This document shows positions 32,259 to 56,780 of a stretch of DNA of 64,000 nt, in pieces. The position numbers and the translations under genes are program-made. Where the stretch lies: the IMG/VR virus record IMGVR_UViG_3300044712_000815, positions 32,001 to 96,000 of that record; one strand, given 5' to 3'. This stretch comes from a virus. Under the pieces are notes generated by a model. That model was not told the DNA's origin. It made no database searches and saw only the letters and a list, made by a program, of their open reading frames with translations. Each line of letters starts with the position of its first letter. Position 1 is the stretch's first letter.

Positions 32259-32771
32259 ATGTCATTAGATAGAAGAATAGTATCAATATTATATTACAAT
32301 AATATATTTGATGTAAATAAAGTAGAAGAATTTATTGGAGAAAAGAATAATTTTTATGAAATAAAAATTGGTGGCAAAATAAAAAAACTTGAAATTCCAA
32401 GTAAAGAATATAATCCTGAAAATTATTTCAATGATCTTAATAATGTTACGTTTGAAAAAAGAACTTTTATAATTCCGGTAAGTGATATATCAGAACAAGA
32501 TGCAAAAGAATCAATCAAACAATTAATGAAAGAATATAATGACGATATAGAATTGAATCAATTTGATATTGTTGTTGATGATATTAAAGAAAATAAAAAA
32601 TTAAAAGCAACTGAATCATTTGAAAAAGATTTAAAAAATTCTGAAATTGAAAAGAAAACAATTTTAGAAAAAAGCAAGAAATCAAATCCAAAAATATCTA
32701 GTAAAAAAATTCAAATTGTAGATTCAAAAAAAATTGATGATGATCTTGATGATTTCATAAATATATTATAA
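32259..32771 (+). CDS. Protein containing a copy of the portal clip-region segment
   Basis: FIIPVSDISEQDAKESIKQLMKEYNDDIE vs portal FIIPVDGLTRQQGEQQITQLMSEYHEDIE (15/29 identical). Confidence 0.65.
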   Translation: MSLDRRIVSILYYNNIFDVNKVEEFIGEKNNFYEIKIGGKIKKLEIPSKEYNPENYFNDLNNVTFEKRTFIIPVSDISEQDAKESIKQLMKEYNDDIELNQFDIVVDDIKENKKLKATESFEKDLKNSEIEKKTILEKSKKSNPKISSKKIQIVDSKKIDDDLDDFINIL

Positions 32772-32836
32772 TAGCAAAAAAACCAGTTAATTAACTGGTT
32801 TTTTTATTTTAAATATCAGATTATTTCAAAAGTAGA

Positions 32837-32866
32837 AAAAAGTGGTATTTTTTTACAAATATATAA
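32837..32866 (+). promoter_or_regulatory. Extended late promoter
   Basis: TGGTAT-N10-ATATATAA. Confidence 0.55.
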
Positions 32867-32885
32867 AGAAAAAATTATAAAAATT

Positions 32886-35234: not shown

Positions 35235-35241
35235 AAATAGA

Positions 35242-35274
35242 AAAAAATGATATTTTTTTAAGAATATATAAATA
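35242..35274 (+). promoter_or_regulatory. Extended late promoter of the capsid gene
   Basis: TGATAT-N10-ATATATAA; includes T4-type TATAAATA at 35267-35274. Confidence 0.6.
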
Positions 35275-35326: not shown

Positions 35327-37168
35327 ATGAATTTAATAGTAGACAATCAAAAAGCTATCGCAAAATGGAAACCTGTTTTGGAATCTCTAGGTGTTGATGA
35401 TCCTTACAGAATGAAATGGATGGCAGAGTACGCTGAAATGCACTCATTAAATGAAAACGTAGCTTATAGTACACTTGGTAACCTTAATGGTATGGGTGCT
35501 ATTCAAGCTGCACAACCATCAGCAACTCCAGGTTTAGTTTGGGGTGATTATGGTGCTGGTACTCCAGGTGGAATTGGTTCTGGTGATATTGGTCAGAATT
35601 TACTTCCAGTTTCAATGAAAATTGCTGCACAAACTATTGGTTTGGATTTAGTAGCTGTTAAACCAGCTTCATCACCAAAAGTTGATATGTTATTCGTAGA
35701 TTTCAAATATGATAACTTAAATGATAGCACATTGAAAGACGAAAGACCAATTATGTTCCAATTGAACTTATCAGGTGGTCTTACAACTTTGAACACAGCT
35801 TTAAAAGCAGCTATGGCAACTAAATTAGATGCTAATTCACAACCAGTAAGAGAAAAAATCGGTGGTTTAACTAATCCTATTTTTGTACACTTATCAGGTG
35901 GTACTTTAACAGTAAACAATACAACAGCTAACGTTGGTGCAACTAGTACATTGGCAGCTTATTTCTTAAAAGGTGCTCCTGTTACTGCTCCAATTATTCA
36001 AGGATTTGATCCAACATTGACCAATTATCCAGCTAATGGTACAAGCCCAGCAAAAGAAGGTTGGTTAGAATTTTTAGGATGGTCAAGAATTAATGGTTAT
36101 CCAATGTTTAGATGTTTCCGTCAATTTAACACAGGTGCAAATAACGCAGGTTTCGGTTTTGTTGATGATAGAAATACTTTCCCAACAGCAGCATATCCAA
36201 TCGTAGATATGTTAAACTCTAGTGTATCAATGCAAATTGCTACAACAGCAGCAGTTGTAACCGAAGTACCTTTAACAGGTGCAACTATTCAATTGGTTTC
36301 ATTGCTTGAAGATCATATTCCTGGTTTTTCAGCAGGTTGGTACTTAAACAAACCTATGACAAGAGATGAAGATGAAAGAACTTATCCAAACGTAATTGGA
36401 CCAGACATTTTCACAAAAACAATCCAAGTTGGTGATGTTGAAATTAGTTCAAGCTTAAAACGTACTCAAATTGAAGATATTAAAGCTGCAACAGGTATGG
36501 ATATCGTTCAAAAACTTGAATCAGTTCTTGTAAATGAACTTACTCAAACTATTAGCAAACAAATTATTTCTAAAGTAACTGAAATGGCTGACAAAAACCG
36601 TACAGCATGGACAACACCAAAAGACACTTTAGGTAATCCTAAATTTGACTTTAACGTTGATACATATTTAGCAGTTGGTGCAGCTACCCCAGGTGGTGAA
36701 ACTACTCATAGTATTCAAAGAAAATTGATTGCAAAAATCAATAACGCTTCTAACTTCATCGCAACTGAAGGTCGTGTTGGACCAGCTCAATACCTTGTAA
36801 CCAATGGTAATTTAGCATCAGTTATTCAAGATGTTGCTGGTTATACCCTTAACCCAGTAAAAGCTAACTTAAACGCTAATGGTCAATTATTCCCTATGGG
36901 TAATGTTGGTAATATTAGTATTTATGTTGACCCTTACCAAAGATGGGATGACAACAGAATCTTCTTAGGTCGTAAAAATAGTGTTGAACAACCAGGTTTG
37001 GTATTCGTACCTTATTTGATGGCACAGTCAATTCAACTTATTTCAGAAGCAACTTGGGCTCCAAGAATGTTGATTAGAAGCCGTTATGCAGTTGCAGACA
37101 TTGGATTCTTTCCTTGGAAACAATTTATGACTATAGTTGTTACAGACAGCGCAGGTGTACTTATCTAA
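35327..37168 (+). CDS. Major capsid protein (gp23-like)
   Basis: KWKPVLE, IAAQTIGLDLVAVKP, EDIKA, NELTQTI, IYVDPY, PGLVFVPY, SRYA; biased codon usage; terminator at ~37189-37221. Confidence 0.92.
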   Translation: MNLIVDNQKAIAKWKPVLESLGVDDPYRMKWMAEYAEMHSLNENVAYSTLGNLNGMGAIQAAQPSATPGLVWGDYGAGTPGGIGSGDIGQNLLPVSMKIAAQTIGLDLVAVKPASSPKVDMLFVDFKYDNLNDSTLKDERPIMFQLNLSGGLTTLNTALKAAMATKLDANSQPVREKIGGLTNPIFVHLSGGTLTVNNTTANVGATSTLAAYFLKGAPVTAPIIQGFDPTLTNYPANGTSPAKEGWLEFLGWSRINGYPMFRCFRQFNTGANNAGFGFVDDRNTFPTAAYPIVDMLNSSVSMQIATTAAVVTEVPLTGATIQLVSLLEDHIPGFSAGWYLNKPMTRDEDERTYPNVIGPDIFTKTIQVGDVEISSSLKRTQIEDIKAATGMDIVQKLESVLVNELTQTISKQIISKVTEMADKNRTAWTTPKDTLGNPKFDFNVDTYLAVGAATPGGETTHSIQRKLIAKINNASNFIATEGRVGPAQYLVTNGNLASVIQDVAGYTLNPVKANLNANGQLFPMGNVGNISIYVDPYQRWDDNRIFLGRKNSVEQPGLVFVPYLMAQSIQLISEATWAPRMLIRSRYAVADIGFFPWKQFMTIVVTDSAGVLI

Positions 37169-37273: not shown

Positions 37274-39250
37274 ATGATTTTAATAGACAAAATACAAATA
37301 ACTGTAACCAATAAAAATGTTGGTTATTATAATCAATTGGGTTATAATGTAAAATCTGGTGATATTATTGATGTTAATATTAATCATTTGCCAAAAACTT
37401 CCAAATTAATAATTGATGTTTCCTGTGATGAATGTAACAGAAAATATAATATATCATACTATTCATATTTAAGAAATATCAAAAATGAAATATATCACTG
37501 CAAAAAATGTTCTGGGATTCGATCAAAAGAAACAAATTTAAAAAAATATGGAGTTGATCATCCATTAAAATTAGAAGAATTTAAAGAAAAAACGAAAGAA
37601 ACTAATTTAAAAAAATATGGTGTAGAATATTCTATGCAAAATAAAGAAATTAGGGAAAAATCAAAAATCACAATAAATGAAAAGTATGGATCATTAGAAT
37701 ATATGTCAACAGATGATTTTAAAGAAAAATCAAAAATAACATTAAATAAAATATATGGGGTAGATTATCCACTACAGAATAATTCAATAAAAATTAAGGT
37801 TGAAAATACTTGTTTAGACCGATATTTAGCTAAATCACCATTTGAATCATATTTTATTAAGGATAAAATATCTAACACAAAAAAAGAAAGATATAATGAT
37901 GAATTTTATAATAATAGGATAAAATATAAACATACGTGTTTAGAAAAATTTGGATTTGAAAATCCAATGCAAAATGAATCAATAAAACAAAAATTATCTA
38001 ATATCATATTTGAAAAATATGGTGTATATTATCCATCGCAAAATGAATTAATTTATCAGAAAATGTTAAAAAATGGTTTACATATTTTTAAATATAAAGA
38101 TTCAGATATTTTTTATCAAGGAAAATATGAATTGGATTTTTTAAATAAATACTATGATAAAATAGATTTAAAAAGAGGCAAATCTATAAAATATATTTTT
38201 GATAATAAAGAATATACATATTATCCGGATTTTTATTTAGAAGATTTAAATTTGATAATAGAAATAAAATCATCATTTTGGTTTAATAAACACCATATTA
38301 AAAATTTGGAAAAACAAAAAAAATGCAAAGAAAATGGATTTAATTTTATATTTATAATAGATAAAAAATATGAAATATTTGATAAAATGATTGAACATAT
38401 AGTATATAATAAAGAACATTCTTGGCAATATGATTTAAGATTAAAATTATTAAAAGAAGATATAAAAAAAATTAATTTTAATTATGAAAATTTGAAAATA
38501 TCAGATTTTAATTTCGAATTTATAGAAAAAAATGATATTAGAACTAAAGAAATAGTCGAATTTATAAAAAAATATGAATGGCTTGGTAAAATGCCAAATA
38601 GACCCACACATAGGTTTATTGCGACATACAACAATATATTAGCTGGTGTTATTGTAATGTCAACACCAAATTCTTTTTCGATGATGTTGGGTGAAAATAC
38701 ACAAAATATAGAAAAACTCATTAGTAGAGGTGCTTGTGCATCTTGGACACCAAAAAATTTAGCTAGTTCATTATTAATGTGGTCCATTAATTGGATGGTT
38801 AAAAATACCGAATTTAGATTGTTTGAAGCATATGCTGACCCCGAAGCAAAAGAACTTGGCACTATATATCAAGCTTGTAATTTTTATTATGTTGGCGATA
38901 ATTTTGGTTCTGATAAATTATATTTTGATGTAGAAAAAGATAATGGGTGGGTTAACAATAGAAGTTTTAGAAAATTAAATTTTTATAAATCTTTCTTAAA
39001 AAAGAATAATATTGATTGGAATGATAATTGGAACAAAAAAACAACAATACTTTGGAATAATATACCAAGTGGTATTGTAGATATTATGAAAAAATATTCA
39101 TTAGAATGTATGAACAATTGTCTAGTTAGAAAGCCAAAAAATAAACATAAATATGCATATGTTATTGGTAATAGTAAGAAAGAAACTAAGATATTAAGAA
39201 AAAAGTTTGAAACTATAAATAAAATTTATAATTATCCAAAAAATAGATAA
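37274..39250 (+). CDS. Putative homing endonuclease (KYG repeats + PD-(D/E)xK) fused to Mom-like GNAT DNA-modification domain
   Basis: TNLKKYGV repeats; YYPDFYL..IIEIKS; C-terminal LAGVIVM, ISRGAC, NLASSLL, AYADP...GTIYQACNFYYVG. Confidence 0.7.
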   Translation: MILIDKIQITVTNKNVGYYNQLGYNVKSGDIIDVNINHLPKTSKLIIDVSCDECNRKYNISYYSYLRNIKNEIYHCKKCSGIRSKETNLKKYGVDHPLKLEEFKEKTKETNLKKYGVEYSMQNKEIREKSKITINEKYGSLEYMSTDDFKEKSKITLNKIYGVDYPLQNNSIKIKVENTCLDRYLAKSPFESYFIKDKISNTKKERYNDEFYNNRIKYKHTCLEKFGFENPMQNESIKQKLSNIIFEKYGVYYPSQNELIYQKMLKNGLHIFKYKDSDIFYQGKYELDFLNKYYDKIDLKRGKSIKYIFDNKEYTYYPDFYLEDLNLIIEIKSSFWFNKHHIKNLEKQKKCKENGFNFIFIIDKKYEIFDKMIEHIVYNKEHSWQYDLRLKLLKEDIKKINFNYENLKISDFNFEFIEKNDIRTKEIVEFIKKYEWLGKMPNRPTHRFIATYNNILAGVIVMSTPNSFSMMLGENTQNIEKLISRGACASWTPKNLASSLLMWSINWMVKNTEFRLFEAYADPEAKELGTIYQACNFYYVGDNFGSDKLYFDVEKDNGWVNNRSFRKLNFYKSFLKKNNIDWNDNWNKKTTILWNNIPSGIVDIMKKYSLECMNNCLVRKPKNKHKYAYVIGNSKKETKILRKKFETINKIYNYPKNR

Positions 39251-39281: not shown

Positions 39282-40088
39282 ATGGATAAAATTAATATAA
39301 TTATCTTTTCGAAAGATAGAGCTTGTCAACTCGAATTATTTTTGCGATCAATGAAATTTTATTTCAAAGAATTTGATCAACATATTATTAATGTTTTGTA
39401 TACATATTCTGATAATACATTTAAAGATGGATATGATAAATTATTTTGTATACATAATGATGATAATATAAATTACATAAAAGAAAACGAATATCCATTC
39501 AAAAAATATGTTATATCACTATTAAATCAAGAAAATCCATATACTATATTTTTTGTAGATGATATTATATTTAAAAATAATTTTACATTAGATTGTAAAC
39601 AATTTGAATTGTTTACACACAACGATGATATTTTAACATTATCACTAAGACTACATCCACATTTGACTTATTGTTATGCTGCAAGTCACGTAATGAATCC
39701 ACCAAAGTTTGATTCTGATTTATTATTTAAATGGTATGGATCAGAAGGTGATTATGGTTATCCGATGTCGCTTGATGGTCATTTTTTCAGAACAAGTGAT
39801 ATTTTAACACTCACCACAATGATTAATTTCAATAATCCAAATTCATATGAAAGTATGTTGGCTTGTTATCCGATAAACAGAATGAAAATGCTTTGTTTTG
39901 AAGATTCGATAATTATAAATAATCCTATTAATAAAGTACAACACTTCAACAATAATGTACATGGTAATATATCAGCAGAATATTTAAATGATATGTTTTT
40001 AGATGGAAATATTATTGATTTTGAATATTTTAAAGAAATAAAAAATATTTCTTGTCATCAAGAAACAAAAATAAATTTTATAAAATGA
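39282..40088 (+). CDS. GT-A fold glycosyltransferase
   Basis: IIFSKDRACQL, FFVDD, YPMSLDGH. Confidence 0.7.
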   Translation: MDKINIIIFSKDRACQLELFLRSMKFYFKEFDQHIINVLYTYSDNTFKDGYDKLFCIHNDDNINYIKENEYPFKKYVISLLNQENPYTIFFVDDIIFKNNFTLDCKQFELFTHNDDILTLSLRLHPHLTYCYAASHVMNPPKFDSDLLFKWYGSEGDYGYPMSLDGHFFRTSDILTLTTMINFNNPNSYESMLACYPINRMKMLCFEDSIIINNPINKVQHFNNNVHGNISAEYLNDMFLDGNIIDFEYFKEIKNISCHQETKINFIK

Positions 40089-40234
40089 TAAGTTTAAAAA
40101 AGAAATATTGGTATAAAACTAATATTTATGTTTGTGTATTATGTGGTATTGAAAAAAAACATAAAACACGAGTTTATTCTGAAAAAGAAAAGGGTATAGT
40201 GTTGCACGATGATATATGTTGGGAACACCTTTAA
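40085..40234 (+). CDS. Small Zn-finger-like protein
   Basis: CVLCG...CWEH; ATGA overlap. Confidence 0.45.
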   Translation: MISLKKKYWYKTNIYVCVLCGIEKKHKTRVYSEKEKGIVLHDDICWEHL

Positions 40235-40248
40235 AAAAAATAAAAAAT

Positions 40249-40860
40249 ATGTTAGAAATAATAAAAAAATATGAATTAGAATATTATTTAAAAATTCTTA
40301 TAACTGAAAATGAAGGTAATAATAACTATTATCACAATTTTCAACATATAACAACAGTAATGATGAATGTTTATCATATAGCATTACATGAAGATTTATC
40401 CCGAAAAAAAATCAGATTATTATTAATTGCTGCATTGTTTCACGATTTCAATCATTCTGGTGGAAAATTAAATGATTCTGAAAACATAAAATTAGCTATT
40501 GAAGCATTTGAAAAATATAGTAAAGAATCAGATAAACACAATAAATTTATTATTGATATTATTAAATGTACACAATATCCATACAATGTTGAAGAAGATG
40601 AAAATTTAACAAAATGCCAAAAAATTATAAGAGATGCAGATTGCTTACATAGTATTGAAGATAATTTTATTCAGCAAATTTTGTTCGGATTAAGTAAAGA
40701 AAGTGGTGGTAATTTAACTATAACAACATTAAAAAATCAAATAAAATTTATGGAAGAATTAAAAGTATTTACTTCTACTGGAAAATCTAAATATAAATCA
40801 AATTTATCTAAAAAAATTAATGATTGTAAATATTTAATTAAAATTTTAAATGGAAAATAA
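40249..40860 (+). CDS. HD-domain phosphohydrolase
   Basis: YHNFQH, AALFHDFNH, IRDAD. Confidence 0.85.
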   Translation: MLEIIKKYELEYYLKILITENEGNNNYYHNFQHITTVMMNVYHIALHEDLSRKKIRLLLIAALFHDFNHSGGKLNDSENIKLAIEAFEKYSKESDKHNKFIIDIIKCTQYPYNVEEDENLTKCQKIIRDADCLHSIEDNFIQQILFGLSKESGGNLTITTLKNQIKFMEELKVFTSTGKSKYKSNLSKKINDCKYLIKILNGK

Positions 40861-41095
40861 TATAGAAATTTTAAATGATCTATCAGATAAAATATTTGAA
40901 GATGCAATAAAAAATGGAATTCTTTCTGATATAGAAAGTGATAAAAATTATGCTGGATATTTTATGTATATGTATAGTATTAATAATATACACTATTTTA
41001 AACATAAAATGACTAGAAAATATGGTTATGATTATGATACAATAATGGAAGCGTGTAATTTGTGGTATGCATCAAGAAAAAAAACAATATTATGA
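40850..41095 (+). CDS. Hypothetical protein
   Basis: Overlapping ORF. Confidence 0.5.
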   Translation: MENNIEILNDLSDKIFEDAIKNGILSDIESDKNYAGYFMYMYSINNIHYFKHKMTRKYGYDYDTIMEACNLWYASRKKTIL

Positions 41096-41898
41096 AAAAT
41101 AAAATTAAAATAATAGATCATATGTTTGCCCATGCGAAATATAGTACGGATTATCAAGAATCTGAATATATTGATTGGGATAGAACACCAATATTACCAA
41201 CTGATGATACGATATTCTATACAGATTATAGTTTAGATCAGGTTAGATCAAATAAAACAACATATGCTTGGTTATTGGAATCACCAGATATAACAACACA
41301 ATCATATAATTGGATTTCTAATAATAACAAAAAATTTACCAAAGTTTTAACACATAGCAAAGAATTATTAGATCGGGGCGAAAATTTTATATTTTGCCCT
41401 ACTGGTGGTTGTTGGATTAAACCCGAAGATCAAAAAATATATGAAAAAACAAAAATAATTTCAATAATTGCATCAGCAAAAAGAATGACCCGTGGTCATT
41501 TGTTAAGACATCAAGCTATTCAACAATTTAAAAATATTGATGTATATGGTAGAGGATATAATCCAATTGATTATAAATTAGATGGATTAAAAGATTATGC
41601 ATTTTCTTTAACTATTGAAAATACAAAAAAAGATTATTATTTCACAGAAAAATTAATTGATTGCTTTATGACAGGAACAGTACCTATATATTGGGGATGT
41701 CCATCAATAGACAAAATATTTCATCCTGATGGTATGATATTTTTTGATAATGTTGATGAACTTGATAATATATTAAACAATTTGTCTTTAGATAAATATA
41801 ATTCAATGAAAGATGCAATTTTATATAATTTTTTTATGGCAAAACAATATAGAATAGCAGAAGATTATATTTATAAAAAAATAATAAATAAAATATGA
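41092..41898 (+). CDS. GT10-like (fucosyltransferase-family) glycosyltransferase
   Basis: YAFSLTIEN...YFTEKLIDCF..GTVPIYWG. Confidence 0.8.
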   Translation: MKNKIKIIDHMFAHAKYSTDYQESEYIDWDRTPILPTDDTIFYTDYSLDQVRSNKTTYAWLLESPDITTQSYNWISNNNKKFTKVLTHSKELLDRGENFIFCPTGGCWIKPEDQKIYEKTKIISIIASAKRMTRGHLLRHQAIQQFKNIDVYGRGYNPIDYKLDGLKDYAFSLTIENTKKDYYFTEKLIDCFMTGTVPIYWGCPSIDKIFHPDGMIFFDNVDELDNILNNLSLDKYNSMKDAILYNFFMAKQYRIAEDYIYKKIINKI

Positions 41899-42206
41899 AA
41901 TTAGGTGAATTTATAGAAAAATTTAGTCACAATAATTTGATTAGACTTGTGTATAAACACAAAGGTGGAAATGAAATTGTATTAGAAACGTGGGATGATG
42001 TTTCAATGGATTGGGAAGTAAATAAAGGGAAAGGTAAAAATAGACATTATATAAATAATGAAGTGCTTGGATTGGCTTCAATTTGTGGGATAGGTCATTA
42101 TCCTGAAGCAATAAATATTATTATTGAAAGATTAGATAATCAACCATTTATTGATGAAATTATTGATGAAAGTAATTATAATTGTACTATGAATAATTAT
42201 GAATGA
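41895..42206 (+). CDS. Hypothetical protein
   Basis: ATGA overlap. Confidence 0.55.
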   Translation: MKLGEFIEKFSHNNLIRLVYKHKGGNEIVLETWDDVSMDWEVNKGKGKNRHYINNEVLGLASICGIGHYPEAINIIIERLDNQPFIDEIIDESNYNCTMNNYE

Positions 42207-42960
42207 TTTTAAAAAAATAATGGACAATTATATTAACAATAGTCCAATATGGACTATGTTAGAAGATAATTTCAATAAATATTATATTGAAGATCAAAAA
42301 ACTATAAATATACCAAAAAAAATACATCAAACTTGGTTGGGTAGTAAAATTCCAGATAAATATACTAGGATTATTGAAACTTGGAAGGAAAAAAATCCAG
42401 ATTGGGAATATAAGTTGTGGACTGATGATGATATTGAAAGTTTCAAATTGGAAAATATTGAAAGTTTTAATAAAATAAATAATCTTGGGGCAAAAACTGA
42501 CATTTTAAGATATGAAATATTATATAGAGAAGGTGGGTTGTATATAGATACGGATTTTGAATGTTTAAAAAGTTTTAACGATTTAATATATTTAGATTTA
42601 TTTTCAGGTACAGGTCATGTTGATGTTCCTGAAGTTTTTAATGGCCTTATTGCGTGTAAACCTGGTCATCAATTGATGCGAAAATTAATTGATGATATAA
42701 AGGTTATTGATACTAATGATTTTAATAAAATAATATCATTAACAGGACCTAAATATTTTTCTAGTAAATTATTCGAATGGATTAAAGATAATCCTACTGA
42801 TAAAATTGTTGTTTTTCCGACTAAATTTTTTTATCCATTTCCAGCTGAACATAGATTTATGATTAGAAATGATGATGAAAATAGTCGTAATATAGTTAAC
42901 CAATTTAATACGGAAAAATCATATTGTACCCATTTATGGTATACTAGTTGGCAAAAATAA
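42199..42960 (+). CDS. GT32 / DXD-motif glycosyltransferase
   Basis: IPKKIHQTW, DILRYEILYREGGLYIDTD, TGP, HLWYTSW. Confidence 0.88.
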   Translation: MNDFKKIMDNYINNSPIWTMLEDNFNKYYIEDQKTINIPKKIHQTWLGSKIPDKYTRIIETWKEKNPDWEYKLWTDDDIESFKLENIESFNKINNLGAKTDILRYEILYREGGLYIDTDFECLKSFNDLIYLDLFSGTGHVDVPEVFNGLIACKPGHQLMRKLIDDIKVIDTNDFNKIISLTGPKYFSSKLFEWIKDNPTDKIVVFPTKFFYPFPAEHRFMIRNDDENSRNIVNQFNTEKSYCTHLWYTSWQK

Positions 42961-42968
42961 TTAAAATT

Positions 42969-43301
42969 ATGAAATATTTTAAAAAATTATTATTAAAATA
43001 TATTGGAAAAATAGAATATATTGTTACAATAACTAATACGGGTGGTGAAATTGAAAAATATTGTTTTTATAAAACAAAAGATCTTGATGTTTTTGTAAAT
43101 GAAATTAATGCTGAAATATATTGGATGGTAGAAAAAATAGAAAAAATTAAAAGATTTGATTTTAAATATAATAAAGAAATAATACATACCCCATTGTGGT
43201 TTCAAAATACTTTTACAGAAAAATATAAATTGGATGATTGTGAATATAGCTTTTTTATGGGCGATGATAGTTTACAAAATATTAAACGTACAAACCGATG
43301 A
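42969..43301 (+). CDS. Hypothetical protein
   Basis: Operon ORF. Confidence 0.5.
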   Translation: MKYFKKLLLKYIGKIEYIVTITNTGGEIEKYCFYKTKDLDVFVNEINAEIYWMVEKIEKIKRFDFKYNKEIIHTPLWFQNTFTEKYKLDDCEYSFFMGDDSLQNIKRTNR

Positions 43302-43528
43302 AAAATGACCAAATGGAAAATGTAAAAGAAAAAATTGAAAGACTTGGGGAAATATGTGGAGCTGCAAGTATGATGAAAATTGGTGAAGAATTAAAAAACG
43401 AACAAGAAATTATAATAAATTACTTAAAGGTAATGAATGTTATTGAAATTGGTATTGATGGTAGGGGATTTTATTTTACTGATGAAAAATATACGGATTT
43501 ATTTTTAGAATATCGTGATAATTTTTAA
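43298..43528 (+). CDS. Hypothetical protein
   Basis: Operon ORF. Confidence 0.5.
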   Translation: MKNDQMENVKEKIERLGEICGAASMMKIGEELKNEQEIIINYLKVMNVIEIGIDGRGFYFTDEKYTDLFLEYRDNF

Positions 43529-43533
43529 AGGAT

Positions 43534-43995
43534 ATGGGTGAAAAAATTATCGACTATATAAAAAATCCAGAATCAATTTTAGATGATAATAATATTGATA
43601 TTGAAATAAGAAAATTGTGTTTTCTTTTTAATAAGTATGGTTTGAGAACACAATTTTCTTGTATTGGTCACGAATTAGATGTCTTAGGTAAGAAAGAAAA
43701 AAATAGAAAATCTCATATTATTTTTGATGATAATATAACAAATGATGATATATCTAAATTGTTAAATAATATACATTTAATTGAAAGAGATAAAATTATA
43801 ATAGCGAAAGATAAATATATTGAATTTCCTGTTGATATTGGTAATTTTGGTTCTTGGATAAGGATTTTAAATAATGAAGCAAAAACAAATCAAACTTGGG
43901 AATTAACATATAATGATAATATTGATTTTCGAAATAAAATTATAAAAAAATTAGAATATTGTTTAACAAAATTGATAGAATTAAAAAATAAATAA
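43534..43995 (+). CDS. Protein with TYW3-like TxxSCxGH motif
   Basis: DIEI...N..GLRTQFSCIGH. Confidence 0.5.
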   Translation: MGEKIIDYIKNPESILDDNNIDIEIRKLCFLFNKYGLRTQFSCIGHELDVLGKKEKNRKSHIIFDDNITNDDISKLLNNIHLIERDKIIIAKDKYIEFPVDIGNFGSWIRILNNEAKTNQTWELTYNDNIDFRNKIIKKLEYCLTKLIELKNK

Positions 43996-43999
43996 AAAT

Positions 44000-44824: not shown

Positions 44825-44834
44825 TTAAAATATT

Positions 44835-45365
44835 ATGAAAATAGGAGACAAAGTTGTAATTGACAAAGAATATTATGTTCAAAAACACAAAGAAATATAT
44901 CCTGAATGGGAATGTGATGGATTAACAAACGATAAAGAACTACTTGGATATAAGCAATTTATTATAGATGGTAGAGAATTATTAGTTGTAAATATATCAG
45001 CAATGAATTATCGTTTAGATTCTTGGTCACACGATAAATATGTAATATATATTCATTTTTTAAGTGATGATGGTATTAAATTTATGACACAATATGATTT
45101 TATTAAGGATGATAGTAAAGAAATACCAAATATAACCTCAATATCTGATTTGAATATAGAACCTAGAAAAAATACGAATATAGAAAATATCATAAAATTA
45201 TTAAAAGAAAAAAAATCAACAAGAAAATCTACTGAAGATAGGATTATAAATGATATTAGATCAAACAAAGATATATATAAACCTGACCTAGAAGCCATTT
45301 TTGCGTTATCTGTAACAATAACAGCTTTAGAAGAACTATTAATATTAGAAGAACAAAATCACTAA
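44835..45365 (+). CDS. Hypothetical protein
   Basis: Operon ORF. Confidence 0.55.
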   Translation: MKIGDKVVIDKEYYVQKHKEIYPEWECDGLTNDKELLGYKQFIIDGRELLVVNISAMNYRLDSWSHDKYVIYIHFLSDDGIKFMTQYDFIKDDSKEIPNITSISDLNIEPRKNTNIENIIKLLKEKKSTRKSTEDRIINDIRSNKDIYKPDLEAIFALSVTITALEELLILEEQNH

Positions 45366-46010
45366 ATGGAAAAATATATTGAAAAATTATTAGATATAAT
45401 AGACTACAATGATGGTTTTTATATAGAATGTGGTGCTAATGATGGTGTCACACAAAGTTATACTTATGAATTAGAAAAACGAAATTGGAAAGGGATTTTG
45501 ATTGAACCATCAGCAACAGCATATTATAAATGTATTAGTAATAGATCGAAAGAAAATTTATTTTATAATTGTGCATTAGTATCAGATAATAAAACAGAAA
45601 TTATTGGTGATTTTGATGGAAGTTGTATGGCAAGTGTTAATGGTGAAAGATTGGGTAGAAACAATTTGTTTACTGTTAAGTGTCGAACACTTACATCAAT
45701 TTTAGATGAACTTAAAACTGAAATTAATGGTCTTATTGGTTCAGAAGAATTACTAAATAAAATTAATAATATTGATTTATTTAGTTTAGATGTAGAAGGA
45801 TATGAATTAGAAGTATTAAAGGGATTGGATTTTTCTAAATATAGTCCCAAATATTTATTAATTGAAATTTATAGTAAAGATTATGATGAAATATTCAATT
45901 TTTTGAAAAAAAACAACTATGAATATGTTTTAAGTACAACAAACTTTAATAAAATTGATAATCCTTTTTGGGATGGTACACATAATGATTATTTATTCAA
46001 AAAAATATAA
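45366..46010 (+). CDS. FkbM-family methyltransferase
   Basis: IECGANDG, GILIEP, DLFSLDVEGYE. Confidence 0.9.
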   Translation: MEKYIEKLLDIIDYNDGFYIECGANDGVTQSYTYELEKRNWKGILIEPSATAYYKCISNRSKENLFYNCALVSDNKTEIIGDFDGSCMASVNGERLGRNNLFTVKCRTLTSILDELKTEINGLIGSEELLNKINNIDLFSLDVEGYELEVLKGLDFSKYSPKYLLIEIYSKDYDEIFNFLKKNNYEYVLSTTNFNKIDNPFWDGTHNDYLFKKI

Positions 46011-46013
46011 AAT

Positions 46014-46703
46014 ATGCCAAATATATTTATAGTTCATTATAAAAAATTAATAGAAAGAAAAGATTATCTAAAATCAGCTTTACATTTTTTTGTAGAAAGA
46101 AATAAATGTGAATTTGTTGAAAATTTTGATCGAGATTTGATCGAAACATATGATACCATGTATCATAAAAATATTGAACTTTGGAAAGAACGAATATCCG
46201 GAATTTATATAAATGAACCAGAATATAGGGATTTAAAACCTTCTGAAATTTGTAATTCATTATCCCATATTGATGCTATGAAACGTATGTTAAATCAGAA
46301 TTTACCACGTGCGATAATTCTAGAAGATGATGTGATAGTTAATGATGATTTTTTAGAAAAAATATATAATTTAATTCGTATTTTACCTAATGATTATGAT
46401 TTCGCATTTTTTGGAACATCGTATGATATGTCACAATTAGATAATATAACATTTAATGAATCAATACAATATGATCAAAATTTATATAAGAAAAAAATTG
46501 GTATAACTAGATGTGTGGATGCATATATTGTTAGTGAAAAAGGTGCGAAAAAAATAGTTAATGAAATTAGTGAGATTTGTTTACCATTTGATTTTGAATT
46601 AAATTATTTCTTTAAAAAATTAAATATGAACGTTTATTGGTATGATCCAGGTTTTATTTCCCAAGGAAGTCAAACGGGACAATATAAAAGTTCTATACGA
46701 TAA
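46014..46703 (+). CDS. GT25 glycosyltransferase
   Basis: ERK, EICNSLSH, ILEDD, AYIVSEKGAKK, PFD. Confidence 0.8.
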   Translation: MPNIFIVHYKKLIERKDYLKSALHFFVERNKCEFVENFDRDLIETYDTMYHKNIELWKERISGIYINEPEYRDLKPSEICNSLSHIDAMKRMLNQNLPRAIILEDDVIVNDDFLEKIYNLIRILPNDYDFAFFGTSYDMSQLDNITFNESIQYDQNLYKKKIGITRCVDAYIVSEKGAKKIVNEISEICLPFDFELNYFFKKLNMNVYWYDPGFISQGSQTGQYKSSIR

Positions 46704-46717
46704 AAAAATATAAAAAT

Positions 46718-47095
46718 ATGGCAGTTATTGCGGTTGATTTTGATGGGACATGTGTTACGCACGAATATCCTAGAATTGGTAAAGATATTGGTGCTGTGCC
46801 AGTATTAAAAAAATTAATTGATGCTGGACATCAGTTAATATTATTTACTATGCGAAGTGGTAAAGAATTACAAGATGCTGTAGATTGGTTTATTAATAAT
46901 AATATAGTGTTATATGGCATAAACATAAATCCAGAACAATCATCTTGGACAAAAAGTAATAAGGCTTATGCCCATCTTTATATTGATGATGCTGGGATTG
47001 GGTGTCCATTAATTTTTGATGATAATATAGCAAGAAGACAGTTTGTTGATTGGGTGAAAGTTGAAGAAATATTAAAACAAAAAAGGTTATTATGA
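46718..47095 (+). CDS. HAD-superfamily phosphatase (BT0820-like)
   Basis: IAVDFDGT, LFTMR, K..A.LYIDD. Confidence 0.85.
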   Translation: MAVIAVDFDGTCVTHEYPRIGKDIGAVPVLKKLIDAGHQLILFTMRSGKELQDAVDWFINNNIVLYGININPEQSSWTKSNKAYAHLYIDDAGIGCPLIFDDNIARRQFVDWVKVEEILKQKRLL

Positions 47096-47493
47096 AAAAT
47101 AAGTATAGTTTGAAAGAAATTAATTATAGTAGATATAGTACGATAAAAATAAGTACAGATCAACAATTGAAAACGGATAAAGAAGTTAAATATTTAACTG
47201 ATGAACAAATTAAAAATGGTGAACAAGGAATAATTTTTGTACCTTGGATACTAAAAGAACATACGACTGAATCTTTAAAGGATTATAATTCTTTTATGAA
47301 AAAGTATAGAAAACAACATGAAGTATGTCCAAAATGTGGGGCAAAAGAACACATTACAACACTTATGGGTTATCCAATGTATTCGGATAGACGAGAAGAA
47401 TATAAGGATTTAAATTCATGTTTATGTGTGTGTGGTGATGTTCATTCGTGTCACGATAGAATATCTATTAAAGAATTTAAAAATAAAATATAA
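47092..47493 (+). CDS. Zn-ribbon protein with short capsid-like motif
   Basis: CPKCG...CLCVCG..H..HDR; GIIFVPWIL resembles capsid GLVFVPYLM. Confidence 0.55.
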   Translation: MKNKYSLKEINYSRYSTIKISTDQQLKTDKEVKYLTDEQIKNGEQGIIFVPWILKEHTTESLKDYNSFMKKYRKQHEVCPKCGAKEHITTLMGYPMYSDRREEYKDLNSCLCVCGDVHSCHDRISIKEFKNKI

Positions 47494-47495
47494 TT

Positions 47496-47711
47496 ATGGA
47501 TGCAAATGAAATTTTAAACGAATATTTAAATCTTGATATAAAAGAAAAAATTAGATTTAAAGTATTAATGAATGATTATGATAAATTAGAAAAACTTGAA
47601 AAAAGAATAGAAATTGCTAAAACACTTACTAATATAGTAAATGAAAACGGTGAATCATATTTAAGTTCAGATTGGGTTAAAACCAATATATTAAAAATAA
47701 AAAATGGATAA
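47496..47711 (+). CDS. Miniature paralogue of the portal C-terminal (crown) region
   Basis: LEKLEKRIEIAKTLT-NIVNENGESYLSSDWVKTNILKI vs portal LNNLSKRAEIASTLSSNLVDADGKPYLSIEFLIRKIMKF (17/39 identical). Confidence 0.7.
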   Translation: MDANEILNEYLNLDIKEKIRFKVLMNDYDKLEKLEKRIEIAKTLTNIVNENGESYLSSDWVKTNILKIKNG

Positions 47712-47865
47712 GTTTAAAATTACATATTGGAAACACAATAAACTAAACCCAATGTCGAAATGTTTTGAAGTAATTGATGCAATAAATAAAAATAATGCAT
47801 TTGATATTTTTATGAATAAATATTCAGGTTCATATTATTATATTATAAAAATAGATTTGATATGA
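47704..47865 (+). CDS. 53-aa hypothetical protein (not in ORF track)
   Basis: MDKFKITYWKH...IIKIDLI; fills the gap and overlaps both neighbours. Confidence 0.45.
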   Translation: MDKFKITYWKHNKLNPMSKCFEVIDAINKNNAFDIFMNKYSGSYYYIIKIDLI

Positions 47866-48725
47866 TATATTTTTACAACAATTTTCATAATGGTGATATT
47901 CATTATTCAAGAACATTTGTTAAGGATATTATGAATAAGTTGGGTAATAATGATTATTGTTATTTGCATAATTGTGATCCAAATATATTAAGAGATATTT
48001 CAAATTTAAAGCACAATAATTCATTTATTAGTTTTGATAATTGGAATTTAATAAGTGATTACCCAATAAAGCATAATTCGCAAATATTAAGAACTGAATA
48101 TGATATATTTATAAACACTTGGGTTGGTCAAAAAGATATGTCTTATATACATCTAGATAAAGATATATCATGTTCACTATATGCACATTATAATTTATAT
48201 AAAGATATTTATGATGAATTATCTATACCAATAGAAGATATAGAATATTATATTCCTGAAATAAACTTTAATAACATTAATAAATCTAGTATTGATAATT
48301 TTATATCTAGTAATAATTTTGAAAAAATCATTTTAATTGCTAATAATATTCCACGTACTGTTAGAATGGATTTAGATTTGAATATATTAGCAGATAAATT
48401 ATCTATTGACTATCCCAATATTTTAATAGCATTAACAAATGAAACAAATTTAATAAAAAATAATATTTTATATCTTGGAAATTTAATACCAGAACCAAAT
48501 TTAAATGAAATAAGTTATTTTTCTAAATTTTGTGATATTATCGTTGGTTTTCCATCGGGTCCATATATTTTTACTATGATAAAAGATAATTTATTTGATA
48601 TAAATAAAACTTTTATTACAATTTCGGATAATATATATGATTCATATTATTTTGAAAGCAAATCAAAAATGTTGCATTTACTAGATCATAATATGGTTAA
48701 TTTATATGAATTAATAAAATTTTGA
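47862..48725 (+). CDS. Putative GT-B fold glycosyltransferase
   Basis: HNGDIHYSR; CDIIVGFPSGP, GT9-like C-terminal motif. Confidence 0.5.
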   Translation: MIYFYNNFHNGDIHYSRTFVKDIMNKLGNNDYCYLHNCDPNILRDISNLKHNNSFISFDNWNLISDYPIKHNSQILRTEYDIFINTWVGQKDMSYIHLDKDISCSLYAHYNLYKDIYDELSIPIEDIEYYIPEINFNNINKSSIDNFISSNNFEKIILIANNIPRTVRMDLDLNILADKLSIDYPNILIALTNETNLIKNNILYLGNLIPEPNLNEISYFSKFCDIIVGFPSGPYIFTMIKDNLFDINKTFITISDNIYDSYYFESKSKMLHLLDHNMVNLYELIKF

Positions 48726-48730
48726 TAAAA

Positions 48731-48913
48731 ATGGAAACTAAAAAAGAAATCGAAAAAGGATTTGTGAATGTTCATATTGACATTACAACAAAACAAGTTT
48801 ATGTATCAAATCATCCATATCCAACTATAGAAGAAGCAGAAATGGGAATTTTTTGTGGATTTGGGATAGAAAAAGTTGGTTGTTTTGAGATAGAATATAC
48901 GAAATACGAATAA
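48731..48913 (+). CDS. Hypothetical protein
   Basis: Operon ORF. Confidence 0.45.
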   Translation: METKKEIEKGFVNVHIDITTKQVYVSNHPYPTIEEAEMGIFCGFGIEKVGCFEIEYTKYE

Positions 48914-48914
48914 T

Positions 48915-49139
48915 ATGAAAAATAAAAATATGTACAAAGCATTTAAAATTACAAAAAAGTATAGACTGACTTTTAATAAGTTCAAAAAGTCAGCTAAAAA
49001 CGATAAGTCTATTTGTGTTTATTCGACTGGAATACGAAATTGGGTAGCAGATGATAGCTTTAACTATTCAATCGTACTTGGAACATTTAGAATAATATTT
49101 TCAATTGAAAGAATTCAACGTGGATGTTGTAATGGTTAA
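48915..49139 (+). CDS. Hypothetical protein
   Basis: Operon ORF. Confidence 0.45.
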   Translation: MKNKNMYKAFKITKKYRLTFNKFKKSAKNDKSICVYSTGIRNWVADDSFNYSIVLGTFRIIFSIERIQRGCCNG

Positions 49140-49160
49140 CAAAAATAAAAATAGTAAATA

Positions 49161-49349
49161 ATGAATGATTTGAAAAATAATCAATTATATGGCTACATTA
49201 TGATATTTGATAAACCAGATTTGAACGGAATTGCAATTTCAAAAAAAGCGATTAATTTAGATGACTTTGAACAAATGAAAAAACGTGGTGATATTATAGA
49301 TTATGAAATTGATGAAAAAGGAATAAAAATTACAAAAAATTACATTTGA
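49161..49349 (+). CDS. Small protein weakly resembling the prohead protease N-terminus
   Basis: LYGYIMIFDKPDLNG vs LSGTFTEFNIKNRND. Confidence 0.45.
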   Translation: MNDLKNNQLYGYIMIFDKPDLNGIAISKKAINLDDFEQMKKRGDIIDYEIDEKGIKITKNYI

Positions 49350-50107
49350 ATTATATGAAAGAATATTATTCAACTAGAAACTTTAATGAAGAAACATTAA
49401 ATAAAATTTTTTCAACATTAAAAAAGTGGACAGAATTCATCCAAAATACAACAAATTTTTCATTTATAAAATTTGGTGATGGTGAATTTTACTGTATGAT
49501 GGGTGAAGAAGGTGAAAATTGTGATCATCATCCATATTCAAAAGAATTAGCTGTTAAGTTGTATGATGCTTGGTACTTTTTTAATACATTAGAATACATA
49601 TATATTGCAGAATGGGCAGGACATAAACCGGATATGAATTGTGCAACAATATCTGAAAGATTTCAATTAGATTTGATTTCTAAAACAGATATTAAAGTTA
49701 ATTTTGTTAATTATGAAATACTATTACAAAATACGTTATGTGAAGACAAATTTAATTTTTTAAAATCTATAAAAGATTCAAATAGAAAAAAAATATTTGT
49801 TGGCCCAAATAGATTACAGGGGGTTAATGATTTTTTGAATGTAGATACATTTATAAACATACCATTAATTAACACATTTGCAAAATATGATGAAATATTA
49901 CCAACAATTTTAAATGAAATTGAAGATAATAGTATATTTTTATTTTCGTGTGGCTTACCATCAAAATCTTTTATTCATAAAATATTAGAAAAAAATAATA
50001 ATGTGACTTGTTTAGATTTTGGTAGTGGATTTGATTCAATGTTTGTTGGACACACTAGAGAAGGTCAAATTGATGGAAATTATGTAAAAAATTATTACAA
50101 TCTATAA
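49346..50107 (+). CDS. GT-D fold (DUF1792-like) glycosyltransferase
   Basis: SFIKFGDGE; FSCGLPSK; LDFGSGFD. Confidence 0.7.
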   Translation: MNYMKEYYSTRNFNEETLNKIFSTLKKWTEFIQNTTNFSFIKFGDGEFYCMMGEEGENCDHHPYSKELAVKLYDAWYFFNTLEYIYIAEWAGHKPDMNCATISERFQLDLISKTDIKVNFVNYEILLQNTLCEDKFNFLKSIKDSNRKKIFVGPNRLQGVNDFLNVDTFINIPLINTFAKYDEILPTILNEIEDNSIFLFSCGLPSKSFIHKILEKNNNVTCLDFGSGFDSMFVGHTREGQIDGNYVKNYYNL

Positions 50108-50286
50108 TGGTACAAGTTACAACAGGTGGTGGTTATACACCCAAAAAATTAACAGATAAAGAAAAAATAAAAGAACTTATTGAACTTTGTTCTATGGTTG
50201 AATCAGAAAATGTAAAATATAGAAAAGATATAGAAAATCTAAAAAATGAAATAAATTTATTAAAAAATAGATATGATAGTTTATGA
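50107..50286 (+). CDS. 59-aa coiled-coil protein (not in ORF track)
   Basis: MVQVTTGGGYTPKK...NRYDSL; TAATG and ATGA overlaps. Confidence 0.5.
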   Translation: MVQVTTGGGYTPKKLTDKEKIKELIELCSMVESENVKYRKDIENLKNEINLLKNRYDSL

Positions 50287-51098
50287 ATGAAGTAATTTTT
50301 TATGAAATAGAAAAAGAAAAATGGTGTGAAGTAAGATATTTAGATGCCGTTATAAGTTATTTAAATAAAAAAATAACAAACTATTCAATAATAGTAACAC
50401 CCAATCAACACACTTTACCTAATACTAAATTTGCGAAAATAATAGTAATATTAACAGGTGATGAATTGGGATTTTTTAGTTCACAAAATTATAATAATCC
50501 GAATATTGTTAAAATATTTAGATTTTTTAATAGAATAGGTAGATATGATGAAAAATTTATATATCCTATTCCACCTGGATATAATTGGACTATGCATAAT
50601 GATTATAGTAAGCAAATGATCAAAATGTATCCTGAGAAAAAATTATCAGAAAGAAAATATGATATTTCATTTCTTGGACAACCATTACCTTGTAGAATTG
50701 AATTATTTAATATTTTAAATCAATTATCAAGCAAATATAATGTATTAAGTAGTGTAAGTCCATCTTTTAGAACGGGTGTTCATATTGATGATTATTATAA
50801 AATAATGGGTGATACAAAGATCGCATTAGCACCAGATGGAACATCAGTAGATACGTTTAGATATGTTGAAGCATTTGGTAGTGGCTGTGTAGTAATTACT
50901 ACAAAAAAAGATGATATTTGGTATTATAGAAATTCACCCACAGTTTTTATTAATTCTTGGTCTGAATTAAATGATAAGCTTATCGAAAATATTTTATCTA
51001 TGGATTTAGAAGAATTATATGATAAAAATTTAAAATATTATAAAGAAATATTATCAGAGGAAGCTGTTGCTAATTATATATATATAAATTTGATATAA
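50283..51098 (+). CDS. Exostosin/GT47-like glycosyltransferase
   Basis: GDE, RKYDISFLGQ, TKIALAPDG..VDTFRYVEAFGSGC. Confidence 0.7.
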   Translation: MNEVIFYEIEKEKWCEVRYLDAVISYLNKKITNYSIIVTPNQHTLPNTKFAKIIVILTGDELGFFSSQNYNNPNIVKIFRFFNRIGRYDEKFIYPIPPGYNWTMHNDYSKQMIKMYPEKKLSERKYDISFLGQPLPCRIELFNILNQLSSKYNVLSSVSPSFRTGVHIDDYYKIMGDTKIALAPDGTSVDTFRYVEAFGSGCVVITTKKDDIWYYRNSPTVFINSWSELNDKLIENILSMDLEELYDKNLKYYKEILSEEAVANYIYINLI

Positions 51099-51103
51099 AA
51101 TAA

Positions 51104-51475
51104 ATGAAAAATGTAAAAGAATATTTAGATAAAAATCTTTTTGTGGTAGGTGAAACATCATGTACATTAAAAAGTAATGGTCATTATTGTGTTTGTGGAT
51201 CGTGGAAATATCCAAAAAAATGGAATGGTCATTCTATTTTTTATAAATCATCAGATGAAGATAAAAAAAATTCTAAAGATGAACCAGATCATATTTCTAT
51301 TTGTATTAATAATGAAGTCGTAATAGTTAGTAATATGTGTGTTAATGGTATATGGAGTAAATATCATTATCTACAAATGTATGAACATATACCAAGAAAT
51401 GAAAGATGCACAAGTGATGAAATAATCAAATATATAGATGAATTTTTTCAATTAATAAAACAAAATGAAAAATAA
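51104..51475 (+). CDS. Hypothetical protein
   Basis: Last ORF of the operon. Confidence 0.5.
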   Translation: MKNVKEYLDKNLFVVGETSCTLKSNGHYCVCGSWKYPKKWNGHSIFYKSSDEDKKNSKDEPDHISICINNEVVIVSNMCVNGIWSKYHYLQMYEHIPRNERCTSDEIIKYIDEFFQLIKQNEK

Positions 51476-52773: not shown

Positions 52774-52774
52774 T

Positions 52775-53614: not shown

Positions 53615-53622
53615 AATATTAA

Positions 53623-53922: not shown

Positions 53923-53924
53923 AA

Positions 53925-54272: not shown

Positions 54273-54368
54273 ATATATAAAAAATATTAAATGAAAATAT
54301 TAATTAATATATAATGTATGGTTTTTAACTTTTAAAAATTAATATATACAAAAAATAACAAATTTATC

Positions 54369-54848: not shown

Positions 54849-54863
54849 AAATAGAAAAATATT

Positions 54864-55259
54864 ATGGCAGTAAAAATTACAATTACAAATGCGGGTGGAA
54901 ATATAAGCGATTTTTTAGATATTTATACAAATGAAACGGGATCGTTTCAATTATTACCTGAATTAGCAAATATTCCGAAATCTAGCTTATTGGTAGGATA
55001 TACTTTTACACCACCTGTTGGAACAACAGGTTACCGTGTTATAGATCAATTTTGTTATTCTGTACTTGAACTTTATTGTGCAACGACTACTACAACGACA
55101 ACAACTATTGCACCTGCTACTACAACGACAACAACTATTGCACCTGCTACTACAACGACAACAACTATTGCACCTGCTACTACAACGACAACATCAACTT
55201 ATCCATATTATCCGTTGAATGAAAGTTTTGAACCAATTGGATTAAATAACTTATTATAA
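54864..55259 (+). CDS. Thr-rich mucin-like virion protein
   Basis: 30-bp repeats encoding TTTTTTIAPA; ends FEPIGLNNLL; terminator at ~55262-55285. Confidence 0.7.
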   Translation: MAVKITITNAGGNISDFLDIYTNETGSFQLLPELANIPKSSLLVGYTFTPPVGTTGYRVIDQFCYSVLELYCATTTTTTTTIAPATTTTTTIAPATTTTTTIAPATTTTTSTYPYYPLNESFEPIGLNNLL

Positions 55260-55377
55260 CAAAAGCCCATTTTTAAGTGGGCTTTATTATTTATAATATA
55301 TAAATTTTATCAACAAATAAAATAAAAAAGAATATATTATACATAATGTATATTATGTTAAAAAATAATTAAAATTT

Positions 55378-56013
55378 ATGTTAAATCCAAAAATTAGTGT
55401 AATAATGGCATCATTTTTATTACCATATCCAAATTCAGCAACCAATCGAGATAAAAAATTTGTTCGTGCAGTAAATAGTTTTAAAAAACAATCTTATTCA
55501 AATAAAGAATTAATTATTGTTTCTGATGGTTGTCCATTAACAGTTGAATTGTATAATAAATTTTTCATCAATGATTCAAATATTAAATTGATAAAAATAC
55601 CCAAACAAGAATTATATTCTGGTGGTATGAGAAATGCTGCACTTGAAATAGCTGATGGAGATATTATTAGCTATTTAGATACAGATGATGTTCTTGGTGC
55701 AAATCATTTACAGTTAATTGTTGATGAATTTGATTTGGATAAATATGATTTTGTATATTATGATGATTTGTTGGTTCTCGATAGCACATTTAAGAAATTT
55801 TATCATAGAATAGTTGAACCTCGTTGGGCTAGTATCGGAACAAGTTCAATAAGTCATAAAAATATGAAAGATATGAAGAAATTGTGGTCAACTGGCTATG
55901 GTCACGACTGGTTAACTATGTTTAAATTGGTGAGTATGGGTCTGAAATACAAAAAATTGAATAAAATTTCTGAATATTTGGTTTGTCATTATGGAAATGG
56001 TGGGGATTTTTGA
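55378..56013 (+). CDS. GT2 glycosyltransferase
   Basis: ISVIMAS, ELIIVSDG, RNAALEIADGDIISYLDTDD, GHDW. Confidence 0.88.
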   Translation: MLNPKISVIMASFLLPYPNSATNRDKKFVRAVNSFKKQSYSNKELIIVSDGCPLTVELYNKFFINDSNIKLIKIPKQELYSGGMRNAALEIADGDIISYLDTDDVLGANHLQLIVDEFDLDKYDFVYYDDLLVLDSTFKKFYHRIVEPRWASIGTSSISHKNMKDMKKLWSTGYGHDWLTMFKLVSMGLKYKKLNKISEYLVCHYGNGGDF

Positions 56014-56234
56014 TTCATTTTTTTAAATAATTTATTAATTTTCGAAACAGGTGAAAATCATTATATATTAGATTGTGATTATGTTTTTAATGATAAGTTA
56101 AAGAATATAAATTTTTTATTGAATAAAATAAATCATAATTTAAAAAATAGTGAAGAAATAATAAATGAACTTAAGATATTAAGACTACGAGAAGAACGAA
56201 AACTAAAACTAAAAAAGATAAAAGAGATATGTTA
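55991..56234 (+). pseudogene. Small gene frameshifted in a T7 tract (56018-56024)
   Basis: MEMVGIFDSF joins LNNLLIFETGEN...REERKLKLKKIKEIC only with a frame change. Confidence 0.35.
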
Positions 56235-56780
56235 AACACGTTAAAAAAATTAGCTTATATATCATTAAAAGAAACTGAAAACTTAGATGATGTTAATATT
56301 ATTTATGTTGAACATAATGGTGGTGTTTTTACAAAAAAAATGCGATGTGATTTTTTTGAAATTGATAATTTAAATACATTACCTGATGCTGTTGAACAAT
56401 TATTTATTGATAAAATTATATCAATGGTTAAACCAATTTATGTTAATTTAAAAGAAACTAAAGCAGCAATTAATACATATTTTGATGCAATAAAACCAAT
56501 AAACGATAAACATAAAAATACCGACAGATTTATCATTTTTTCCAATGATATAAATAAAGAATTTATAAATGAAACATTTGAATATCCGGTACATATACTT
56601 GCATCAGAATATTTAGATGATAATTTGGTTATATTCGGATACAAAACAAAAGTAGATCAACCTGGAATAGTATTAGTTACTAATAAAGAAGGAATAAAAC
56701 ATAAGAATAAAATACGATTAACTGTAAATGATATTGGTTATCATTCCAATAAAGCGTATTATGTTTTAAAAATAAAATAA
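56229..56780 (+). CDS. Truncated paralogue of the major capsid protein
   Basis: DDNLVIFGYKTKVDQPGIVLV vs capsid DDNRIFLGRKNSVEQPGLVFV (11/21); RLTVNDIGY vs RYAVADIGF. Confidence 0.65.
   Translation: MLNTLKKLAYISLKETENLDDVNIIYVEHNGGVFTKKMRCDFFEIDNLNTLPDAVEQLFIDKIISMVKPIYVNLKETKAAINTYFDAIKPINDKHKNTDRFIIFSNDINKEFINETFEYPVHILASEYLDDNLVIFGYKTKVDQPGIVLVTNKEGIKHKNKIRLTVNDIGYHSNKAYYVLKIK

Follow-up and report, generated by a model that had tools for sequence, protein, structure and literature searches.

Why a phage should carry, dispersed among its other genes, small open reading frames (ORFs) that resemble pieces of its own head proteins is the question raised by a 64,000-nucleotide stretch of viral DNA (the window), bases 32001-96000 of the 159,264-bp linear virus contig IMGVR_UViG_3300044712_000815, which has 26% guanine plus cytosine (GC) and is an estimated 22% complete. 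The contig's clade is one of megaphages; relatives whose portals are 84-91% identical occur commonly in IMG/VR, a more remote one has a genome of 508 kb that is 97% complete, and the relatives used here are partial contigs. A first-pass annotation had read five ORFs (named here by start position as 32259, 47092, 47496, 49161 and 56229, all five of them present) as fragments of portal, capsid and prohead protease making up a systematic decoy repertoire. Partial duplication and cassette exchange of prohead genes have given small modules that persist as families, and head proteins are overwhelmingly their donors across the clade. That the head pieces form a loose, fast-turning repertoire of host-facing mimics is a reading that we put forward tentatively and at clearly less than even confidence.

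An all-against-all search of 259 ORFs, with significance taken against 500 shuffles and with hidden Markov models (HMMs) of the clade built for the donors, matches 32259, 47496 and 56229 to head proteins, and none of the 500 shuffles reaches the score of any of the three. Residues ~62-98 of 32259 align with portal residues 275-310 (BLAST E 1.9e-7; z-score 9.7; clade HMM 7e-8), and by mapping on T4 gp20 (PMC4493910) the piece is the clip strand and helix, spanning the terminase-contact tip, where DGLTRQQ is changed to SDISEQD. For 47496 the pairwise match to the portal crown (E 4e-5; z 9.0), the clade HMM (2e-8) and the gp20 mapping likewise agree. Within the gp20 portal family both ORFs thus have homology to the clip (279-358) or crown (451-524) segment; neither has the complete wing-stem-clip-crown architecture, 35-56 residues being aligned and the rest of 32259 being an unrelated domain. 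An N-terminal extension of the 32259 alignment was rejected as portal-derived, since it represents the conserved domain of another gene family, which follows the portal in most close relatives and lies inside its transcription unit. Directly behind this 50-residue domain is a variable slot, holding the clip in 2 of 26 homologs, the crown in at least 4 of the 26 and neither in the rest, two close relatives included; a protein search with the clip insert alone matched only itself.

The crown motif occurs in three contexts, stand-alone as 47496, inserted in relatives' post-portal genes, and joined to a 47092 homolog (P0021), and so head-derived modules move between genes. One close homolog of 47496 was found. 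The piece is 47-50% identical to the clade portals, its own portal included, and this bears on the idea that such genes are assembly poisons, dominant-negative subunits directed at co-infecting or superinfecting T4-like phages much as the Ccm protein of Staphylococcus aureus pathogenicity islands (SaPIs) acts on its helper. At such identity self-poisoning would be expected, and we consider this explanation improbable.

Recognition of the capsid pieces is less direct. Pairwise, 56229 matches the capsid weakly (E 0.007; clade HMM 3e-3), as does a sixth piece missed by the first-pass annotation, 11188 (E 0.003; z 5.4; 0 of 500 shuffles; clade HMM 9e-3), and since a reversed decoy scored 6e-4 with the capsid profile both calls needed more support. 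For 56229 this came from its family profile, which aligns to the capsid protein at an HHalign probability of 95.9%, and from its predicted fold, which is that of HK97 with the A-domain and P-domain core topology. Its family comprises 30 clusters at 50% identity, spanning 25-50% identity with the predicted fold intact. The 183 residues cover gp24 residues 31-419 by way of deletion, with a short linker in place of capsid 562-586, and the parts removed are the insertion domain together with three that shell contacts need, N-arm, E-loop and the long hairpin of the P-domain. The T4 gp23/gp24 vertex and capsid family (HK97 fold, PF07068) retains N-arm, E-loop and insertion domain, and the gp24 chain compared has 390 residues; unlike its members, 56229 is also distant from the head operon, lacks a late motif directly upstream and is patchy in the clade. 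By anatomy it falls outside the capsid and vertex proteins, although it belongs to the HK97 fold, and none of the other pieces is a member of its parent family. The hairpin deleted from 56229 is carried by 11188, which has a small family in relatives, and directly after 11188 lies a phage-encoded transfer-messenger RNA (tmRNA; 11418-11782). The capsid gene is the donor of both pieces, as the portal gene is of clip and crown. Scans with PHROGs and Pfam gave no head-family match for any window fragment, and phrog_138 matched only the real capsid gene across the genome, so generic libraries miss head fragments. Two further ORFs, 51104-51475 and 112307-112975 (the latter in genome coordinates), look capsid-like but were set aside, their matches being not significant.

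The two calls that had been given as weak find no significant match among the phage's own proteins (47092: z 1.4, clade HMM E 6.1; 49161: z 0.4, clade HMM E 7.3, no Pfam match), and what support they have comes from elsewhere. Residues 1-56 of 47092 resemble two capsid C-terminal strands in swapped order. Among 18 homologous clusters the G-x-x-x-x-P-W/Y motif is kept in 14, one homolog matches Pfam Gp23 (E 0.009), and the module recurs on an 85-residue ORF of a relative (G002; E 8e-9), where the match continues into capsid-like sequence; the motif's next-best clade matches include five capsid proteins at non-significant E-values. Judged from sequence, 47092 is probably a capsid derivative, with the capsid gene the probable donor of its module. 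One homolog lies 3.5 kb from an Acb3 match. For 49161 the sole source is the ESM Atlas, in which its features (0.97) point to small viral clusters carrying Peptidase_S77, with a TM-score of 0.73 to an S77 model, and which makes a prohead-protease-like protein probable. It has no catalytic motifs (no histidine, and no counterpart of the donor's H76 and S132), and no relatives in the viral contigs searched; the protease-scaffold gene is the donor class for it and for fragments in relatives. An independent sequencing run carries 46700-47912 without differences except for a 44-base gap at 47108-47151, which excludes an assembly artefact as the origin of 47092 and 47496.

Whether head genes are special as donors was addressed by a census for which 4.1 Mb of clade DNA yielded 206 family profiles, run against 4,293 short ORFs and their reversals. 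Partial matches numbered 173 among the real ORFs and 29 among the decoys, with the capsid giving 23 fragments, protease/scaffold 6 and the portal 5, and decoys of these none. This corresponds to 34 matches on 1,985 head residues and 8 on 9,587 residues of other core genes, where the expected head share was 0.16; in module types head genes gave 13 and the others 1-4 (p <= 7e-8, although the matches share ancestry and such p-values overstate their independence). No fragments of sheath, hub, wedge, RecA, helicases, single-strand binding protein (SSB), SbcC/D or the putative primase appeared in the census, for which replication gene labels were checked apart from clamp, primase and ribonucleotide reductase (RNR), labelled by eye. 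Power was comparable, simulated 35-residue pieces at 45% identity being detected at rates of 0.34-0.51 with head profiles and 0.25-0.76 with controls. The counter-case recognised at first pass, that non-structural genes yield fragments as often, does not hold, and the fragments do recur in relatives.

Genuine non-head exceptions are few: a DNA polymerase B motif-A piece found in a single lineage, which makes up the most clear-cut fragment family outside the head proteins (70-residue ORFs L032:4426-4638, L037:1412-1621 and L033:2129-2344), stand-alone AAA and vWA domains, and a terminase piece, the census having missed at least one terminase ATPase piece. A further 17 apparent terminase fragments were excluded, 14 as N-halves of an intein-split terminase, two as intein-like domains and one as a broken C-terminal end; HNH, transposase and split-gene matches were dropped as well, and a search for the PhoH locus found nothing. 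A split intein interrupts the large terminase within Walker A, and an endonuclease gene separates the two halves here (G000 98656-102397, L055); many relatives have a split terminase as well. Within the head donors the same few segments recur, and the equally detectable portal wing and capsid 226-275 and 326-375 have no credible fragment. Relatives also hold capsid 88-132 fragments and a family made from the N-arm of the mature capsid (G005 24112, G002 62681, G008 79408, G013 245316), mostly late-class and in some members with a capsid-targeting-like N-terminus, which may be true head components. T4 capsid-targeting-like N-termini occur on 235 short clade ORFs (in the window, for example, 12583, 13431 and 16625), with the late motif enriched.

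Many of the pieces in relatives share a C-terminal tag, R..K[LI]..[LI], found on 499 of the 4,293 short ORFs and on 22 after shuffling. It is on 114 of 444 short ORFs in one relative (G001), on only 3 in this contig and on none of the six window fragments; its bearers are mostly non-late. The 85-residue relative of the 47092 module, one member of the 11188 family, and the polymerase and terminase pieces above are tagged. Where a donor can be identified, about 17 tagged ORFs are head pieces and 3 are credible others; the majority of the ~500 have no recognisable donor. Further bearers are a homolog of the Thoeris inhibitor Tad3 (E 3e-35; a member of alignment A4), a MazG-like protein and a ribosomal L7/L12-like domain (L261:6700-7350); the tagged terminase ATPase piece is L198:12983-13660.

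Timing was approached through the late-promoter-like motif AATATATA, which lies upstream of 111 of 214 structural genes, 1 of 42 replication genes and 647 of 4748 genes overall. It directly precedes 1 of 40 fragment genes (p 0.036 against all genes) and is within 3 kb of 6 of the 40, so that by this promoter-motif proxy the fragments are probably mostly non-late. The window's glycan operon begins with a late motif, 8 kb upstream of its three fragments, and a sigma-70 promoter scan gave chance level. Before the portal gene, we infer, AATATATA drives the portal and 32259 as a single unit.

Selection was judged from the ratio of nonsynonymous to synonymous substitution rates (dN/dS), a weak measure here as it is pairwise over 35-70 codons of 25% GC DNA. 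Against references of 0.12 for the portal and 0.19 for the conserved domain of 32259, values are 0.21 for 47092 and 0.24 for its module (confidence interval 0.09-0.66), 0.40-0.66 for the mini-capsid 56229 and 0.24-0.47 for the crown inserts of relatives, so purifying selection is indicated for some of the pieces only; 47496 (0.74, 0.24-3.40) and the clip insert (0.79, 0.35-2.09) have intervals that include 1. The latter would suit an account in which the pieces are by-products of shuffling, the head locus shedding partial copies that are joined to tags and drift, some under weak foldability constraint. Gain and loss among close relatives, deletion fusions such as P0021, the scarcity of homologs of 47496 and 49161, the many tagged ORFs lacking a donor and the tag on a polymerase piece all fit it too. 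It is nevertheless unlikely in our estimation, for the mini-capsid family keeps its predicted fold across great divergence, the 47092 motif is conserved, reuse of donor segments is non-random, and the sheath, also an abundant late gene, sheds nothing.

A further possibility is that the pieces serve the phage's own head assembly as adaptors or regulators, docking homotypically on proheads, delivering cargo such as the zinc ribbon, glycan enzymes or the 32259 core domain, or tuning nucleation, size or timing. In T4, gp67 and gp68 are encoded between portal and protease. 32259 resembles these prohead core proteins (PMC9958956) in being acidic, late, apparently co-transcribed with the portal and so placed, although the likeness is one of position only and 32259 carries a swappable portal-derived insert. 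That the donors are the prohead set, that portal subunits and terminase make contact at clip and crown, that the N-arm family of relatives is late-class with targeting-like N-termini in some members, and that four window fragments lie among glycan genes, with glycosyltransferases as neighbours, would also suit adaptors. However, the late motif is missing from most stand-alone fragments, close relatives have the pieces only patchily, the mini-capsid orthologs of G05 and G07 are outside glycan operons, and the terminase-contact tip of 32259 is altered; we judge the adaptor role doubtful. The glycosyltransferase and methyltransferase clusters themselves (39282-51475 and 55378-57554, with GT10, GT25, GT-D-like, GT2 and DXD types) follow the capsid gene, directly after which, at 37274-39250, a homing-endonuclease domain and a Mom-like domain for DNA modification are joined in a fusion.

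The host-facing reading would work as follows. Each piece would be kept for a binding surface of its parent, the capsid A-domain and P-domain core, the portal clip and crown helices or the protease strands, and would be unfit to assemble a head. Produced ahead of the real proteins or separately from them, the pieces might tie up or draw away host proteins with an affinity for prohead components, whether immune sensors or host factors (EF-Tu, for example), and at 35-55% identity they would have diverged enough to bind without activating; in relatives the shared tag may route the bound partner elsewhere. Avs7/8/10 bind the capsid A-domain interface (10.64898/2026.01.04.697583) and CapRel the P-domain sheet and spine helix (PMC9712102), and it is because the retained surfaces overlap these and the Gol site, together with non-late timing and the tag's company, that host-facing mimicry is favoured. 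Of the systematic repertoire claimed at first pass, what is supported is clade recurrence, head donors, constraint in several families and avoidance of the late motif by stand-alone fragments; a repertoire of decoys would be loose and not one operon.

Several points weigh against it. In published work truncated cores (Avs) or free peptide (Gol/Lit) activate the sensors, and what the cyclic-oligonucleotide-based signalling system CBASS senses is protease activity; a simple fragment therefore need not block a sensor. Tail tube, neck, helicase and RecA, all sensed by defences, have no fragments here; the donor set is simply the co-assembling prohead set; the clip and crown intervals span neutrality; and 32259, which differs in kind from the other pieces, is chiefly a late gene of the core set that may or may not carry an insert.

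The nearest functional precedents are DSAD1 and Ccm, neither of which is a repertoire of self-fragments. DSAD1 of SPbeta (anti-DSR2; PMC10973363) sits in the pocket where a sensor takes up a virion protein and does not activate that sensor, the function proposed here. Ccm of SaPIbov5 (PMC8569155) resembles 56229 as a capsid homolog kept for a role other than main shell protein, but it is satellite-encoded, redirects the helper's capsid and is a near-full homolog (260 residues in the chain compared), as 56229 is not, whereas here the phage copies itself, in much smaller pieces and from three donor genes. The T4 Gol peptide of the Gol/Lit pair (PMC3014915) is part of gp23, activates defence and has no separate gene; the capsid 88-132 fragments of relatives span its region (own capsid 92-120 corresponds to gp23 ~94-123), and no window fragment clearly contains it.

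The first-pass annotation had drawn a parallel with a proposed ribosomal RNA (rRNA) decoy at 294-363, and that piece is real, a stand-alone copy of 23S rRNA helices 43-44 at 300-361 (Rfam LSU 1092-1152, E 2e-14) a short way upstream of the gene for an RNA-binding protein (516-1910, phrog_850). That the clade runs a modular counter-defence kit, in which prohead surfaces detuned into non-activating baits, many of them tagged, stand beside RNA and ribosomal-protein mimics, seems unlikely at present. As to the host, one contig of a relative has a gene with a Por_Secre_tail domain (type IX secretion; L281:14866-15486), which together with A-rich leaders lacking Shine-Dalgarno sequences here hints at Bacteroidota. 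Coordinates of the window features are collected in Table 1.

Table 1. Head genes, head-derived pieces and associated elements, in window coordinates
Feature	Position	Strand	Basis or remark
Capsid residues 567-584 on a 61-aa ORF	11188..11373	+	sixth piece
Late-promoter-like motif before portal gene	30457..30464	+	clade upstream-motif counts
Portal protein, 585 aa, T4 gp20 type	30485..32242	+	phrog_213 E 1.5e-57; gp20 alignment
Post-portal gene, 170 aa	32259..32771	+	clade-conserved 50-aa N-terminal domain; acidic/Lys low-complexity tail
Portal-clip insert (portal ~275-312)	32436..32558	+	
Terminator-like hairpin closing portal + 32259 unit	32776..32805	+	
Prohead protease fused to scaffold, 782 aa	32886..35234	+	phrog_207 E 1.4e-32
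Major capsid protein, 613 aa, gp23 type	35327..37168	+	phrog_138 E 1.8e-22; gp23 alignment
ORF of 133 aa, capsid-like module (aa 1-56) and Cys/His zinc-ribbon-like part	47092..47493	+	
Stand-alone portal crown piece, 71 aa (portal 443-498)	47496..47711	+	
Probable prohead-protease-like mini-protein (N-terminal strands), 62 aa	49161..49349	+	
ORF of 38 aa, nearly only R..K[LI]..[LI] tag	56119..56235	+	overlaps 56229 start
Minimal HK97-fold protein (predicted), 183 aa	56229..56780	+	

Whatever its function, 56229 shows an HK97 fold occurring in nature at 183 residues, shorter than all HK97 chains listed in the fold searches (228 residues and up), and thereby sets a minimal core for the fold. In the literature searched, neither repertoires of head fragments taken from a phage's own genes nor the R..K[LI]..[LI] tag are described, and no paper was found on the head-biased, recurrent recycling of essential genes into tagged mini-genes, a way in which new genes arise in giant phages. 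If the pieces are baits, their retained segments would map the capsid, portal and protease surfaces that bacterial immunity reads in nature, and the genes would be a small library of candidate inhibitors for Avs, CapRel and Lit-type systems.
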